Origin: Escherichia phage vB_EcoM_G4498
Sequence record: NC_054918.1
Strand: one strand, 5' to 3'
Length of the DNA stretch: 64,000 nt
Numbering within the stretch: position 1 is the stretch's first letter; each line of letters starts with the position of its first letter. The notes below the pieces were generated by a model. The model did no database searches and was not told the origin of the DNA. It saw only the letters and a list, made by a program, of their open reading frames with translations. A program made the translations under genes and the position numbers. Positions 704-39,267 of the stretch are shown here, piece by piece.

Positions 704-1944
<1,241 letters not shown>

Positions 1945-4169: not shown

Positions 4170-4445
4170 TTATTTCATATTATTGAAATATTCTTCTGCG
4201 ATTTCATCGTTATCATGGTAAACTTTAGAAGACAGTTTAACATAACCTTCAGCAGTGAACATGTTAATCACAACCTTTACAGTATACCACTGACCATCTT
4301 CATTACCCATTACTGCGTAAGTTTCAAACATCGGATGATCAGGACCGATAACTTTAATATCATTCACTGTACGACCGAAATCTTCTGAAACACATTTCAT
4401 AAAGAAGTTGAACAGTTCACCGTAATTATCCATTTTATTCTCCAA
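4170..4445 (-). CDS. Hypothetical early protein, 91 aa
   Basis: ORF immediately downstream of an early promoter copy. Confidence 0.6.
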   Translation of the reverse strand: MENKMDNYGELFNFFMKCVSEDFGRTVNDIKVIGPDHPMFETYAVMGNEDGQWYTVKVVINMFTAEGYVKLSSKVYHDNDEIAEEYFNNMK

Positions 4446-4476: not shown

Positions 4477-4506
4477 ATAGTACCATAGAAGAACAGGGAT
4501 GTAAAC
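4477..4506 (-). promoter_or_regulatory. T4 early-type promoter (GTTTAC, 18 nt spacer, TACTAT)
   Basis: minus strand GTTTAC (4501-4506) and TACTAT (4477-4482), 32 nt upstream of the ATG at 4445. Confidence 0.5.
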
Positions 4507-4626: not shown

Positions 4627-4653
4627 CCAAAAAGCCCTATCATTTAGATAGGG
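4627..4653 (-). terminator. Intrinsic terminator (7-bp stem CCCTATC/GATAGGG plus U-run on minus strand)
   Basis: perfect inverted repeat 4635-4653 followed on the minus strand by CTTTTT, just downstream of the 4662 stop. Confidence 0.5.
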
Positions 4654-4661
4654 ATTTAAAA

Positions 4662-5225
4662 TTATTTACATAGTTTAGTTATTATAGCTTCTGCAGCAGC
4701 TTTTAGCTTAGATGCGGTGTTAATACGATTTTTAATTTCAGTATATGCATCGCCAAGAACATCAAGGCTATCAGAATAAACACTTACACTATTGCGTTCG
4801 CTATTTGAAATAGAACCTTTAGTTTTACGATCAAAATCGGTATACACGTCTTGAAGATCGCGGGCTGCCTTCTTTGCATCATCCAATGCATCAAGAGCTT
4901 TATTCAAAGCATTGACATATTTTTTAGTGTCAAACATATTCTTAGAAATTTTAACAGGTGCACGTTCAGGAGTAGCTAATGCAGATTTAGAAACCTGAGC
5001 GCCAGATGCCAATTTCTTAGAAATTTTGAAAAATGCTTTATTGAAACTATTTTCTTGGCTCATCGTAAAAGAACTGTTATCGATGTTATACATTTCAATA
5101 GCTTTAGCTTTCCACTTAAGAAAATCGCCCCGGTCTTTTGGGTCCAAGTGGAAGAATACTTTAGTAAGATCTGCTTCAGATGGTAATTTTGCTGCTTCAG
5201 TTAAAAATTCGGCATAGGTTTTCAT
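4662..5225 (-). CDS. Internal protein-like (capsid-targeted), 187 aa
   Basis: ATG start; N-terminus MKTYAEFLTEA matches the CTS motif; own terminator downstream. Confidence 0.7.
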   Translation of the reverse strand: MKTYAEFLTEAAKLPSEADLTKVFFHLDPKDRGDFLKWKAKAIEMYNIDNSSFTMSQENSFNKAFFKISKKLASGAQVSKSALATPERAPVKISKNMFDTKKYVNALNKALDALDDAKKAARDLQDVYTDFDRKTKGSISNSERNSVSVYSDSLDVLGDAYTEIKNRINTASKLKAAAEAIITKLCK

Positions 5226-5300
5226 TTAAAATCCTTGAAATAATTTATTGGTTATTAATTATTTATTATCCGTAACAGCATTCTCTGAGTGATTCAAACT

Positions 5301-5327
5301 AAAAAGCCCCAACCTTTCGGTCAGGGC
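5301..5327 (-). terminator. Imperfect hairpin plus U-run, candidate 3' end of a stable RNA
   Basis: ACC-TTTC-GGT core hairpin with flanking CCC/GGG, followed on the minus strand by TTTTT. Confidence 0.35.
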
Positions 5328-5329
5328 TA

Positions 5330-5630
5330 AGCCTTGCGGCAACCTTGTCGGGGTTCCACCTGCTAAGGCAAGTGTTTGTACGAAACGCCGGGATTTGAAC
5401 CCGGTTATTAAGTAGTTGACGCTACTCAATATTTTTAAAAGGCCATATCTCGACCATATCCGAACGTTCCGTCAAAAACGCTACTCGGCTTATGGCAAAG
5501 ATATTTCCTCGAATCGATAATTCGGTGCGCCGTTTCTGCTGTAATAGTAAAGAGCCAGAACACAGTAAAACTGTGGGAGGAAACTATACTCCAGGGAACA
5601 TCAGTCCGACGACTTACCGGTAGCGACCCG
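5330..5630 (-). ncRNA. Candidate small stable RNA locus (T4 species 1/2-like position)
   Basis: 300 bp without a credible ORF between tRNA-Arg side genes and a terminator; contains tRNA T-arm-like hairpin CCGGG-TTCAAAT-CCCGG. Confidence 0.3.
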
Positions 5631-5635
5631 GTTTC

Positions 5636-5986
5636 TTAATATTCTTTTAAAGCATCAATCTGTTCACGGCGTTTACGCCATAAATCAATTGCTTCATACG
5701 CGGATTCAGCATTTCGAATTAGCCGGCATTTATGTAAAGACTTATGATTTTGATATTGCGTAAATAACGAAATTTTATCTAAAAGGTCTTTACGATCAAA
5801 ATATTCGTAACCATCTAAACCAAATGAACGATTTTTGAGAAATTGCCAATGACCATATTCGTTTTCGACATAAACATAATCTGCATGCTGATAAAGTAAA
5901 TTAATTACACGTTCAGAAATAACAGTATCGTTATGATTAAAATAGAATGTTAAATCATGAACTACTAAATAGACATTACCTTTCAT
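5636..5986 (-). CDS. Hypothetical protein, about 116 aa
   Basis: track start at 6034 would overlap tRNA-Arg; internal ATG at 5984-5986 has GAGGAAAAT RBS. Confidence 0.5.
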   Translation of the reverse strand: MKGNVYLVVHDLTFYFNHNDTVISERVINLLYQHADYVYVENEYGHWQFLKNRSFGLDGYEYFDRKDLLDKISLFTQYQNHKSLHKCRLIRNAESAYEAIDLWRKRREQIDALKEY

Positions 5987-6004
5987 ATTTTCCTCACTTA
6001 TAAT

Positions 6005-6081
<77 letters not shown>

Positions 6082-6085
6082 TATT

Positions 6086-6160
6086 TGGCGGACGTGATAG
6101 GATTCGAACCTATAACCAATCGCTTAACAGGCGATCGCTCTGCCATTGAGCTACACATCC
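6086..6160 (-). tRNA. tRNA-Asn (anticodon GTT)
   Basis: anticodon arm ATCGC-CTGTTAA-GCGAT; T-loop GGTTCGAATCC; encoded CCA. Confidence 0.8.
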
Positions 6161-6164
6161 AAAT

Positions 6165-6251
6165 TGGTGGGGAGCGATGGAGTCGAACCACCCGAGTCGC
6201 AATGACAATGGATTTACAGTCCACACCGCTACCTCTACGGGATAACTCCCC
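6165..6251 (-). tRNA. tRNA-Tyr (anticodon GTA), long variable arm
   Basis: 87 nt; anticodon arm GTGGA-CTGTAAA-TCCAT; acceptor GGGGAGT/GCTCCCC; encoded CCA. Confidence 0.8.
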
Positions 6252-6260
6252 TAATTAATT

Positions 6261-6335
6261 TGGTGGCCCTGGGTGGAATTGAACCACCATCTGGCGATTA
6301 TGAGTCGCTTGCTTGAACCTTCCAGCTACAGGGCC
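6261..6335 (-). tRNA. tRNA with CAT anticodon (Met or lysidine-modified Ile)
   Basis: anticodon loop CTCATAA; acceptor GGCCCTG/CAGGGCC; encoded CCA. Confidence 0.8.
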
Positions 6336-6336
6336 T

Positions 6337-6412
6337 TGGTGCTGATTGACGGAATCGAACCGCCGACCTTCTCATTACAAGTGAGTTGCTCTACCTACTG
6401 AGCTAAATCAGC
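6337..6412 (-). tRNA. tRNA-Thr (anticodon TGT)
   Basis: anticodon loop CTTGTAA; T-loop GGTTCGATTCC; encoded CCA. Confidence 0.85.
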
Positions 6413-6417
6413 AAAAC

Positions 6418-6507
6418 TGGCGGAGGCGATAGGATTTGAACCTATGAGTCGCCGGAGCGACTGCCGGTTTTCAAGACCGGTGCATTAAACCACTCTGCCA
6501 CGCCTCC
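6418..6507 (-). tRNA. tRNA-Ser (anticodon TGA), long variable arm
   Basis: 90 nt; anticodon arm CCGGT-CTTGAAA-ACCGG; encoded CCA. Confidence 0.85.
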
Positions 6508-6509
6508 AG

Positions 6510-6583
6510 TCTCCGTGACAGGATTTGAACCTACGACATTCTGCTCCCAAAGCAGACGCTCTACCAAACTGAGCTACACGGAG
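6510..6583 (-). tRNA. tRNA-Pro (anticodon TGG), CCA not encoded
   Basis: anticodon arm TCTGC-TTTGGGA-GCAGA; abuts tRNA-Ser as in the T4 Pro-Ser dimeric precursor. Confidence 0.85.
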
Positions 6584-6593
6584 TAAATTAAAT

Positions 6594-6668
<75 letters not shown>

Positions 6669-6672
6669 AATT

Positions 6673-6759
6673 TGGTGCGAGAAGTGGGACTCGAACCCAC
6701 AAGGAAATCATTCCGCAGCATTTTAAGTGCTGTGCCTTTACCAATTTGACCATTCTCGC
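6673..6759 (-). tRNA. tRNA-Leu (anticodon TAA), long variable arm
   Basis: 87 nt; anticodon arm CAGCA-CTTAAAA-TGCTG; encoded CCA. Confidence 0.85.
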
Positions 6760-6760
6760 G

Positions 6761-6834
6761 CTGGGAATAAAGGACTCGAACCTTTGCATCCTGGAATCAA
6801 AATCCAGTGCCTTACCAACTTGGCTAATTCCCAA
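6761..6834 (-). tRNA. tRNA-Gln (anticodon TTG), CCA not encoded
   Basis: anticodon loop TTTTGAT; acceptor TGGGAAT/ATTCCCA; 1 nt from tRNA-Leu (dimeric precursor arrangement). Confidence 0.85.
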
Positions 6835-7875: not shown

Positions 7876-8100
7876 TTATTCAACACCAGCGGCTTTCAAA
7901 AGTTTCTTAAGATTGGCAACACCTTGAGCAGAAAATGTGACCTTTCCACCTTTTTCACTGATAGAACCAACCAATTTAGCAAGTTTATCATTAGGAATTT
8001 TTTTAAAATCAGCCAATGTCCCATCAAAGGTTTTTGAAACAAAAGGCAGTTCATCTTCATGTCTTTTAGCTTCTACAATAAATTTTTGATATGTTTCCAT
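7876..8100 (-). CDS. Internal protein-like (capsid-targeted), about 74 aa
   Basis: N-terminus METYQKFIVEA from ATG 8098-8100; alternative ATG at 8112 adds METK. Confidence 0.6.
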   Translation of the reverse strand: METYQKFIVEAKRHEDELPFVSKTFDGTLADFKKIPNDKLAKLVGSISEKGGKVTFSAQGVANLKKLLKAAGVE

Positions 8101-8177: not shown

Positions 8178-8486
8178 CTATTTTATTCCGCGTGATGCAA
8201 TTGTGTTCTGCCGTTTAACGCCAGTTTGTTTAAAGTCATGATTGTCGATTTGATCGGTACGAGCAACTCCGAATGATGATTTGATTTTAGCCTTAGATCC
8301 TTTAGTTATAGAAATAAACATCTCGGAAGCCCCTTTCTTAAAGTCCGAGGCGATTACTTCAACGCCGTTCTTAGCAAGTGACTTCAGAATTGCCTCTGCA
8401 TACTCATCGTCAAGACTCGTCTGAGTATTAATAACGAATGTCTTTGGCGCAGCCGCTTCATTGATAAATTCTTTAAATGTTTTCAT
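8178..8486 (-). CDS. Internal protein-like (capsid-targeted), 102 aa
   Basis: ATG start; N-terminus MKTFKEFINEA. Confidence 0.7.
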   Translation of the reverse strand: MKTFKEFINEAAAPKTFVINTQTSLDDEYAEAILKSLAKNGVEVIASDFKKGASEMFISITKGSKAKIKSSFGVARTDQIDNHDFKQTGVKRQNTIASRGIK

Positions 8487-8547: not shown

Positions 8548-8820
8548 TCATTTTAAATAAATTGCGTATTTTTTATAACCCGCTGACTCATGACGAAGAC
8601 CATTATCATTAGCAAAACGCTCAATGTTGTTAATTTGATTCTGGTCAAGTTCAGAGATGTCAAACACGAAAAAGTTACGTTTGTTACCAACTGTTACATA
8701 GTCAGTTAAATCAATATCATATAGGTAATTGATGTCAGCAATCAAAGTCTTGACAGCTTTGCTAATTTTTACTTTTTCGTTAAAAGCAGCTTCAGCAATA
8801 AATTCTTGATACGTTTTCAT
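8548..8820 (-). CDS. Internal protein-like (capsid-targeted), about 90 aa
   Basis: track start at 8838 is GTG; ATG at 8818-8820 gives MKTYQEFIAEA. Confidence 0.7.
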   Translation of the reverse strand: MKTYQEFIAEAAFNEKVKISKAVKTLIADINYLYDIDLTDYVTVGNKRNFFVFDISELDQNQINNIERFANDNGLRHESAGYKKYAIYLK

Positions 8821-37364: not shown

Positions 37365-37789
37365 TGCTTCTGATCCCTGAAACTCATGAATTAGTTCTCG
37401 AGAATGTCGAAGCACTTATTCCTGAAGCACAGGGTCGCTTTGACGAATTGTCTTCTGCTTTAAATAAAGACGATATAAATACAATTGTCGAGAATATGCT
37501 TGATGATGAAACTGATTTAGCGGTTGCATTAGCTTCTATTAATGAAAATATGCCGTTAAATGAATTTATCGTTAAACATGTTTCTGCCCGTGGTGAAATT
37601 ACTCGCACTAAAGATCGCAAAACCCGCGAACGTAATGCATTTCAAACTACCGGGTTGTCTAAAGCAAAACGTAGACAAATTGCTCGTAAAGCTACCAAAA
37701 CGAAGATTGCCAATCCAGCAGGTCAATCTCGTGCTCAGCGTAAGCGTAAAAAAGCTCTTAAACGCCGTAAAGCATTAGGATTAAGCTAA
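37364..37789 (+). CDS. 68: Prohead core protein gp68
   Basis: 141 aa; synteny. Confidence 0.9.
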
Positions 37790-38427
37790 TGAATGAACCC
37801 CAATTACTAATTGAAACTTGGGGTCAACCTGGCGAAATTATTGATGGCGTACCAATGCTTGAATCTCATGATGGAAAAGACTTAGGTTTAAAACCGGGTT
37901 TATACATCGAAGGAATATTCATGCAAGCGGAAGTCGTCAATAGAAATAAACGTCTTTATCCAAAACGTATATTAGAAAAAGCGGTAAAAGACTATATTAA
38001 TGAGCAAGTTTTAACTAAACAAGCTCTCGGAGAATTAAATCATCCTCCACGCGCTAATGTTGACCCGATGCAAGCCGCTATCATTATAGAAGATATGTGG
38101 TGGAAAGGAAATGACGTATACGGACGAGCTCGTGTTATTGAAGGTGACCACGGTCCTGGAGATAAATTAGCAGCTAATATTCGTGCCGGATGGATTCCAG
38201 GAGTTTCTTCTCGTGGATTAGGTTCATTGACTGACACAAATAAAGGTTATCGTATCGTAAACGAAGGATTCAAATTAACTGTAGGTGTTGATGCAGTATG
38301 GGGTCCAAGTGCTCCAGATGCATGGGTAACTCCTAAGGAAATTACCGAATCACAGACGGCGGAAGCCGATACAAGTGCCGATGACGCCTATATGGCTCTC
38401 GCAGAGGCCATGAAAAAAGCGTTATAA
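37789..38427 (+). CDS. 21: Prohead core scaffold protein and protease gp21
   Basis: 212 aa; synteny 68-21-22-23. Confidence 0.95.
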   Translation: MNEPQLLIETWGQPGEIIDGVPMLESHDGKDLGLKPGLYIEGIFMQAEVVNRNKRLYPKRILEKAVKDYINEQVLTKQALGELNHPPRANVDPMQAAIIIEDMWWKGNDVYGRARVIEGDHGPGDKLAANIRAGWIPGVSSRGLGSLTDTNKGYRIVNEGFKLTVGVDAVWGPSAPDAWVTPKEITESQTAEADTSADDAYMALAEAMKKAL

Positions 38428-38457: not shown

Positions 38458-39267
38458 ATGCTTAAAGAACAACTGATTGCCGAAGCGCAGAAAATTGATG
38501 CTTCCGTTGCTCTTGATAGTATTTTCGAATCAGTTAATATTTCTCCGGAAGCAAAAGAAACTTTCGGCACTGTATTCGAAGCTACCGTCAAGCAGCACGC
38601 CGTTAAATTAGCTGAATCTCATATCGCTAAAATTGCTGAAAAAGCAGAAGAAGAAGTAGAAAAAAATAAAGAAGAAGCAGAAGAAAAAGCTGAGAAGAAA
38701 ATCGCTGAGCAAGCTTCTAAATTCCTTGACCATCTTGCAAAAGAATGGCTCACTGAAAATAAATTAGCAGTAGATAAAGGTATCAAAGCCGAACTGTTTG
38801 AATCCATGCTTGGTGGATTGAAAGAGCTCTTCGTTGAACACAACGTTGTTGTTCCAGAAGAATCAGTTGATGTTGTAGCTGAAATGGAAGAAGAACTGCA
38901 AGAACATAAAGAAGAATCAGCTCGTCTGTTCGAAGAACTCAATAAGCGTGACGCATATATCAATTATGTGCAGCGTGAAGTGGCATTGAGCGAAAGTACT
39001 AAAGATCTGACTGAGTCTCAAAAAGAAAAAGTCTCTGCTCTGGTCGAAGGTATGGATTATTCAGATGCATTCTCAAGTAAATTGAGTGCAATCGTAGAAA
39101 TGGTGAAGAAATCTAATAAAGATGAAAGCACTATTACTGAGAGTATAAATACTCCTGATACTGAAGCAGCCGGACTGAATTTCGTCACTGAAGCTGTAGA
39201 AGATAAATCTGCACAAGGTGCAGAAGATATTGTAAGTGTATATGCGAAAGTCGCATCTCGTTTCTAA
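38458..39267 (+). CDS. 22: Prohead core scaffold protein gp22
   Basis: 269 aa acidic coiled-coil protein; synteny. Confidence 0.95.
   Translation: MLKEQLIAEAQKIDASVALDSIFESVNISPEAKETFGTVFEATVKQHAVKLAESHIAKIAEKAEEEVEKNKEEAEEKAEKKIAEQASKFLDHLAKEWLTENKLAVDKGIKAELFESMLGGLKELFVEHNVVVPEESVDVVAEMEEELQEHKEESARLFEELNKRDAYINYVQREVALSESTKDLTESQKEKVSALVEGMDYSDAFSSKLSAIVEMVKKSNKDESTITESINTPDTEAAGLNFVTEAVEDKSAQGAEDIVSVYAKVASRF
39144..39151 (+). promoter_or_regulatory. T4 late promoter TATAAATA inside the 3' end of gene 22 (P23-like)
   Basis: exact TATAAATA about 135 nt upstream of the gene 23 ATG. Confidence 0.6.

Follow-up and report, generated by a model that had tools for sequence, protein, structure and literature searches.

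ORF187, a gene for a protein of 187 aa in Escherichia phage vB_EcoM_G4498, probably encodes a T-even internal protein that has gone unlabelled (estimated probability about 0.75): one made late in infection, directed to the core of the prohead, cut by gp21 and injected, an anti-defence function being the best guess by analogy. The whole stretch of DNA that was analysed, referred to here as the window, comprises 64 000 nt of sequence record NC_054918.1. The kind of gene is familiar; its family, locus and target are undescribed as far as the searched literature shows.

Gene, leader and protein family

A sequence-only reading of the window had pointed to a 187 aa ORF at 4662–5225 starting MKTYAEFLTEA, and the ORF was confirmed on the minus strand. 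The elements of the gene, together with the two head genes predicted to act on its capsid targeting sequence (CTS), are as follows.

4662–5225, minus strand: coding sequence of ORF187, a precursor of 187 aa (20.8 kDa, pI 9.3), based on dN/dS and a full-length match to PHROG 2280
5232–5236, minus strand: Shine–Dalgarno sequence AAGGA, 6 nt 5′ of the ATG, read from the sequence
5196–5225, minus strand: CTS, codons 1–10 (MKTYAEFLTE), with Y4, F7, L8 and E10 matching the positions defined by IPIII mutagenesis
37789–38427, plus strand: gp21 prohead protease (Pfam Peptidase_S77, E = 1.5e-111), the enzyme predicted to remove the CTS
38458–39267, plus strand: gp22 scaffolding core protein (Pfam T4_CASP, E = 5e-90), the predicted docking partner of the CTS

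The start codon is the first ATG following a stop (MKTYAEFLTEAAKLPSE...), and the encoded protein begins MKTYAEFLTEAAKL. Relative to the RB14 and D5505 orthologues there are 15–16 synonymous and 3–7 non-synonymous differences. The resulting dN/dS of 0.05–0.12, together with the good ribosome-binding site, indicates a real gene. Searches against Pfam and NCBIfam returned no family, only sub-threshold coiled-coil noise, and a literature search found no published papers under the ORF names. Codon 186 (4668–4670) is Cys (TGT) in the window and Gly, Asp or Ser in all other orthologues seen (…TKLCK versus …TKLGK); Cys186 is the sole difference from the protein of phage HY03.

The first ten residues of IPIII, MKTYQEFIAE, suffice for the packaging of foreign proteins (PMC9026906; PMC3012670). 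Mutagenesis of IPIII has shown that residues 4 and 7 govern targeting and residues 8 and 10 processing (PMC9026906), and the gp21 protease cleaves after L/I-x-E (PMC9026906; PMC3012670). In the ORF187 leader Y4 and F7 are identical to those of IPIII, and all four experimentally defined CTS positions are satisfied. The protein has a single [LI]xE site, L8-T9-E10|A11, and a gp21 cut is predicted after Glu10 (L-T-E|A). The predicted mature protein, residues 11–187, would have a mass of 19.6 kDa, a pI of 9.4 and 31 K+R, with a neo-N-terminal peptide from Ala11 of AAKLPSEADLTK; it is basic like T4 IPII and IPIII.

A six-frame scan of the 64 kb window with a loose regular expression for the CTS (M..[YF].[EK]F[ILVM].E) matched seven ORF starts. 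ORF187 is one of them, and the other six belong to the two classical internal-protein loci; the match is not due to chance. The sequence-only reading had called ORF187 twice the size of the other internal-protein-like proteins in the window. This holds for five of the other CTS ORFs (74–102 aa) and fails for the sixth, which is the true ipIII; 187 aa is a normal size for an internal protein, since T4 IPIII has 193 aa and RB14 Ip4 157 aa.

ORF187 matched PHROG 2280 (‘unknown function’) with E = 3.1e-53, residues 1–181 aligning to profile positions 1–178 of 178. A word-indexed search of 5.8 billion proteins recovered only relatives of at least 90 % identity and chimeric fragments. It was an exhaustive HMMER search of 1.84 billion representatives that yielded the one informative distant relative, P0016 (29 % identity), which opened up the family. 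Searching with P0016 brought in members from Karamvirus, Mosigvirus (JS09_035), Dhakavirus (IME08 orf129), Marfavirus and Kosakonia phages, 349 phage records in total. ORF187, fD1 g140, JS09_035, Marfa gp137 and P0016 each gave a full-length hit to PHROG 2280 (E 1e-36 to 1e-60). The gene lies directly 3′ of the tRNA/rnaC block and 5′ of e.8 or e.6 in every case examined, a position occupied in at least five lineages of T4-like phages. Full-length profile matches and the shared position after the tRNA/rnaC genes make this a coherent family.

The earlier description of the gene as novel stands as regards annotation and function, which are missing; the gene itself is present at ≥85 % identity in 163 deposited phage records, all annotated as hypothetical, and about 720 records share its flanks. 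Carriers of ORF187 include RB14, HY03, D5505 and the BASEL phage Paracelsus. Several hundred further genomes beyond these 163 carry PHROG 2280 members. The RB14 copy of ORF187 is RB14ncORF136c, and the RB69 copy is frameshifted, its halves being ORF148c/149c. Four metagenome proteins (P0010, P0011, P0012 and P0015) are chimeric or truncated products: P0011 joins the middle part of ORF187 to the C-terminus of NudE, P0015 joins the N-terminus of e.8 to the C-terminus of ORF187, and P0012 continues from the N-domain into unrelated sequence. They could have arisen by recombination or deletion, or through faulty assembly.

The leader persists across this divergence. Eleven family members with 18–29 % identity to the ORF187 protein all keep the same pattern, in which position 4 is aromatic, position 7 hydrophobic, position 8 L/I and position 10 E, and Glu10 is one of only 13 invariant columns of the family alignment. 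Many members have a second [LIV]xE protease site just ahead of a conserved AGERMTK, the start of the folded domain. Leaders of this kind include MKTYNEFLNE|SVLTE|AG (IME08), MYTFNEFLAE|TEVITE|AG (JS09), MITFNEFLNE|SEMINE|AG (P0016), MINFKQFIAE|SESDMITE|AG (P0019) and MLKFKDILTE|SEELVLE|SG (P0023); that of Marfa reads MLKFKDILTE|SS. No other computational argument for a functional leader is as strong as its survival through such divergence.

AlphaFold2 modelled ORF187 poorly with near-identical sequences only (pLDDT 63) and reached a mean pLDDT of 75 with the broader alignment. The model has three parts.

5001–5192, minus strand: small helical N-domain, residues 12–75, pLDDT 68–86 per 10-residue block
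4926–5000, minus strand: disordered variable linker, residues ~76–100, pLDDT <50 at 77–90
4668–4925, minus strand: C-terminal antiparallel helical hairpin, residues 101–186, from the AlphaFold2 model

The N-domain is the best-conserved part of the family, with T21, K22, D28, R32, D34, K37, Y46, I48, A64 and F65 invariant in the alignment. Linker length varies, and other genera have a long stretch rich in Pro/Ala/Lys here. In the orthologue of Shigella phage CT01 (1201–1689), ~25 residues are lost in frame, precisely the stretch flanked by two KISK repeats, and with them the predicted linker. In P0021–P0024 the C-terminal domain has been exchanged. Fold searches with the model gave no functional hint, and neither sequence nor fold similarity was found between ORF187 and IPI* or any of the solved inhibitors.

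Locus and cassette

The genome in the window is a Tequatrovirus mosaic. Around ORF187, 1.3 kb is 99.9 % identical to phage HY03, but none of the deposited genomes reaches that level over the first 12 kb of the window. Past ~5630 the HY03 deposit continues with an Alt-like gene and tail-tube genes in place of the tRNA cluster, which would mean a rearrangement or assembly error in HY03 or else another mosaic relative as the source of the window. Gene order on the minus strand is T4-like: gene 4, 2, 3, 1, 57A, 57B, three small CTS genes (the ipI locus) and tRNA.4-2-like genes, then ten tRNA genes, the rnaC-like RNA, ORF187, e.8, e.6...e.2, nudE and e. After gene e come two more small CTS genes and, at the left edge, the start of ipIII. 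The earlier reading placed ORF187 in the e-to-tRNA region away from the other internal-protein-like genes, and the gene indeed lies outside both classical loci, between e.8 (4170–4445) and the rnaC-like RNA with its ten neighbouring tRNA genes (6005–6833). The surrounding features are listed here from left to right.

274–534 and 704–985, minus strand: CTS genes of 86 and 93 aa between e and ipIII, matching PHROG 2667/35655 (‘internal head protein’) and PHROG 3499, in that order
4477–4505, minus strand: early-type promoter (TTTACA, 17 nt, TG-extended TACTAT) from which transcription into e.8 resumes past the cassette, conserved in T4 and RB14
4627–4653, minus strand: intrinsic terminator of ORF187, a 7 bp stem (4 G-C pairs) with a 5 nt loop at 4653→4635, followed by CTTTTTGG
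4629–4637, minus strand: right copy of the 9 bp direct repeat GGGCTTTTT, from a sequence scan
5297–5328, minus strand: terminator of the rnaC-like RNA, left border of the cassette, a 10 bp stem and TTTTT (−18.5 kcal/mol, z = −3.7), aligned to T4 rnaC
5301–5309, minus strand: left copy of GGGCTTTTT, from the same scan
5301–5560, minus strand: homologue of the small stable RNA rnaC (species 1), nearly identical to T4, with a tRNA-like GGTTCAAATCC arm and a strong terminator
5636–6034, minus strand: ORF of up to 132 aa between the rnaC/rnaD region and tRNA-Arg, its 5′ end overlapping tRNA-Arg
6005–6833, minus strand: ten tRNA genes including Asn, Tyr and Met/Ile(CAT), ten by ARAGORN and only nine by Rfam
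7876–8100, 8178–8486 and 8548–8820, minus strand: three tandem CTS genes of the ipI locus, starting METYQKFIVEA, MKTFKEFINEA and MKTYQEFIAEA

Several of these neighbours depart from T4. The gene at 704–985 and the end of gene e share a few bases, and in T4 nothing lies between e and ipIII. Each CTS gene of the ipI locus has its own early-type promoter (GTTTAC, 17 nt, TAnTAT), where T4 has one gene. The ORF at 5636–6034 is the counterpart of a 351 nt hypothetical gene in D5505, CT01 and HY03; in that neighbourhood T4 has rnaD and, past tRNA-Arg, segB. T4 has eight tRNA genes to the ten found here, and no segB homing endonuclease lies among the tRNA genes of the window. The rnaC-like RNA matched no Rfam family at the gathering threshold.

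The terminator that the sequence-only reading had assigned to ORF187 at 4627–4653 was borne out by folding, which recovered the hairpin and T-run (−11 kcal/mol, z = −2.2 versus shuffles), and the same element is annotated by ARNOLD in phage D5505. Its 5′ arm and loop are specific to the cassette, while its 3′ end, the final three stem bases plus the T-run (GGGCTTTTTGG), has the same sequence as its counterpart in the rnaC terminator. Thus, the ORF187 terminator is a hybrid of a private 5′ arm and loop with the end of the rnaC terminator. The shared GGGCTTTTT occurs in just two copies on the minus strand of the 64 kb window and not at all on the other strand. By alignment, the 672 bp between the two copies, carried by both the window and RB14, is exactly what T4 lacks: in T4 the rnaC terminator (…GACCGAAAGGTTG-GGGCTTTTTGGTATCTA…) runs straight into the region upstream of e.8.

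The same interval is occupied differently in other phages. In fD1 it holds g140, a gene for 157 aa flanked by two near-identical complete copies of the rnaC terminator; genes of the g140 type are found in 512 phage records. D5505 and many others carry a g140-type gene and ORF187 in tandem, the order in D5505 being rnaC terminator, TATAAATA, g140-type gene, duplicate rnaC terminator, AATAAATA, ORF187, hybrid terminator and e.8. From the layouts of T4, the window and D5505 it follows that the interval between rnaC and e.8 holds zero, one or two paralogous promoter–gene–terminator cassettes. ORF187 is an accessory gene, without its cassette in T4, frameshifted in RB69 and accompanied by a tandem paralogue in D5505. 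Gain, loss and duplication of the cassette would have proceeded by recombination between the terminator repeats. As a self-contained recombining cassette, it would make the tRNA-to-e.8 interval a third polymorphic internal-protein locus.

Expression, packaging and function

A promoter-like element lies within the cassette, immediately after the rnaC terminator.

5260–5267, minus strand: late-promoter-like AATAAATA, matching 7/8 positions of the T4 late consensus TATAAATA and starting 42 nt 5′ of the ATG

The same position is occupied by GATAAATA in RB14 and CT01, by TATAAATA in JS09, IME08 and fD1 g140, and by CATAAATA in Marfa, with differing flanks. The 7-mer of the late promoter occurs 36 times in the A+T-rich window against 37 expected, and is thus not enriched. 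An early-type promoter (GTTTAC…TAnnAT) stands just 5′ of all six other CTS genes of the window and of T4 ipI, ipII and ipIII; none was found just upstream of ORF187. The AATAAATA element is likely a T4 late (gp55) promoter, judging by its match and placement, and a late promoter-like element would fit a prohead component. A middle promoter of the MotA type 5′ of ORF187 was weighed as well and dismissed, since TGCTGTTA makes a poor MotA box and a −10 element at the right distance is lacking.

A sequence of events can be proposed on this basis. ORF187 would be transcribed late, from the gp55-type promoter just past the rnaC terminator. Going by the CTS match, its 10-residue CTS would dock the precursor on the gp22 scaffolding core during prohead assembly. 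Cleavage by gp21 after Glu10 (Leu-Thr-Glu|Ala) would then leave a basic protein of 177 residues in the head with the DNA. The mature protein would be injected with the genome and could act ahead of any phage gene expression. Its likeliest role would be to neutralize a host defence; by analogy, modification-dependent (type IV) restriction enzymes would head the list of candidate targets. The steps up to injection follow from well-established CTS behaviour, whereas the later action of the protein is what we infer.

The analogy is drawn from proteins with demonstrated targets. Ip1, Ip2 and Ip3 inhibit GmrSD, a different variant in each case (PMC12373910), and Bas37_0260 blocks McrBC (bioRxiv 10.1101/2025.11.20.689424). 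Because all four CTS proteins of known role inhibit modification-dependent (type IV) restriction, an anti-defence role by this precedent is the best guess for ORF187. The loss in T4, the decay in RB69, the tandem paralogues and the domain swapping would agree with such a role. The protein is a plausible packaged effector, as the sequence-only reading had suggested.

Virion data come from a paralogue. In LC-MS/MS of ultracentrifuged fD1 virions, g140 was marked as particle-associated at the strict threshold (PMC8309999, Table S3). The head proteins g129 (Ip4-type) and g146 (94 aa, at the ipI position) were marked in the same table, while g138 and the e.8 homologue g139, the neighbours of g140, were unmarked (PMC8309999). 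In that proteome 113–137 of the 277 gene products were scored as particle-associated (PMC8309999), a proportion implying many false positives and low specificity. Additionally, g140 is a paralogue and not an orthologue of ORF187, and its detection is as much a caution as a support. A virion proteome of an ORF187-carrying phage was not found in the literature; the fPS-65/fPS-90 paper and the Sfk20 paper are without virion mass spectrometry. In the deposited record of ValerieMcCarty01 (Jiaodavirus; proteome in PMC13119998) the homologue is a 58 aa fragment.

It is possible, though rather unlikely, that the packaged protein has a structural or physical role, neutralizing or organizing DNA or aiding ejection as a general head component. 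The basic mature form (pI 9.4, 31 K+R) and the long Pro/Ala/Lys-rich linker of other genera would suit such a role, as would the contacts that lysines of T4 internal proteins make with DNA phosphates (PMC3012670). However, basic charge is common to Ip2 and Ip3, both of them restriction inhibitors. The position is held in at least five T4-like lineages under strong purifying selection, unlike that of the fast-turnover internal proteins; as a fixed position across genera and such selection fit a narrow inhibitor less well, a general role in the head or in DNA entry keeps some probability. T4, on the other hand, is without the gene and the RB69 copy is frameshifted, and the coexistence of two divergent paralogues and the exchange of the C-terminal domain (P0021–P0024) fit an arms race better.

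It is improbable that the protein stays unpackaged and acts late in the cytoplasm, its CTS-like N-terminus being a relic of recombination between the starts of internal-protein genes. The near-identical 5′ ends of these genes could indeed serve as recombination substrates. Nevertheless, the leader and its cleavage Glu are kept down to ~20 % identity, where neutral sequence would have decayed, ten residues are enough to package unrelated proteins, and the paralogue fD1 g140 was detected in virions.

The earlier suggestion of an IPIII-like protein failed at the sequence level. A BLASTP comparison with T4 IPIII aligned residues 1–12 only, and the alignment with RB14 Ip4 was likewise confined to residues 1–12. 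With T4 IPII, BLASTP gave E = 0.001 over residues 1–37, driven by the CTS and an FH-L-KDR patch; hhalign assigned this pair a probability of 13 %, so that the weak extension to residue 37 is without profile support. The true ipIII orthologue starts at window position 212 on the minus strand and runs off the left edge (1–212), with MKTYQEFIAEASVVKAKGINKDEWT identical to T4 IPIII. That ORF187 is a displaced orthologue or homologue of T4 IPIII is therefore very unlikely: the two are of similar size (187 versus 193 aa), basic and CTS-bearing, but their similarity ends at residue 12, the true ipIII start, MKTYQEFIAEASVVKAKGINKDEWT as in T4, is present at ≤212, and they fall in different PHROGs, which refutes homology at the sequence level.

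The preferred reading, an injected internal protein with a candidate anti-defence role, bears on a class of proteins that act before phage gene expression because they enter with the genome; those of known function in T-even phages all disarm host restriction. ORF187 would add an unlabelled family and a third locus to this repertoire. All members are ‘hypothetical’ in the databases, in hundreds of therapeutic-candidate coliphages as well as in phages of Shigella, Yersinia, Klebsiella and Enterobacter, and a simple annotation rule would be an N-terminal CTS on members of PHROG 2280. The terminator-bounded cassette would explain the gain, loss and duplication of such genes. A more speculative and doubtful extension is that PHROG 2280 is an ancient injected family of many Tevenvirinae at a fixed third locus, modular and directed at something other than type IV enzymes. 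If so, the family could act on some other defence system or on a host function required as the DNA enters, and the modular build would consist of a conserved N-domain, a variable linker, an exchangeable C-terminal hairpin and tandem paralogues.

Comparison with known systems

ORF187 shares with the classical T-even internal proteins (1994 work cited in PMC12373910) a 10-residue N-terminal CTS with an L/I-x-E gp21 site. Like them it is small, basic and non-essential, varies in presence and absence among close relatives and has no clear similarity to other members past the leader. It differs in its locus, a third one between rnaC/tRNA and e.8, whereas the classical genes adjoin gene e or gene 57B. 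It also has a late-type promoter element in place of the early-type promoter 5′ of the other internal-protein genes. The classical proteins turn over among close strains, whereas its family has kept a single position in several genera, and unlike them it has never been annotated as an Ip. A comparable protein is Bas37_0260 (bioRxiv 10.1101/2025.11.20.689424), which was likewise recognized only by its N-terminal leader, is unrelated to Ip1–3 and lies in a polymorphic cassette. Bas37_0260 differs in belonging to the ipI locus and in having a demonstrated target, McrBC.

The g140 gene of fD1 (phiD1, a Yersinia phage) shares with ORF187 its locus, the PHROG 2280 profile (E = 4e-60) and the type of leader (MKSYTQFLNE|AVLNE|A). 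Both proteins comprise a helical domain, a linker and C-terminal helices, and both genes have copies of rnaC terminator sequence at their flanks. However, g140 encodes 157 aa with a different N-domain sequence and has the canonical TATAAATA promoter, and in pairwise BLASTP the CTS alone aligns with ORF187. The C-terminal domain of g140 aligns with that of an Enterobacter-phage member at E = 1e-7.

In its architecture the ORF187 cassette resembles the PeSL modules, which Arbiol et al. reportedly described in 2010 as mobile cassettes of T4-type genomes bounded by promoter and stem–loop. In both cases one accessory gene lies between repeated regulatory sequences that are able to mediate gain, loss and tandem duplication by recombination. 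The repeated unit differs: an early promoter and stem–loop in the PeSL modules, and in the ORF187 cassette the 3′ part of an intrinsic terminator (GGGCTTTTT), extended to the whole rnaC terminator in fD1 and D5505.
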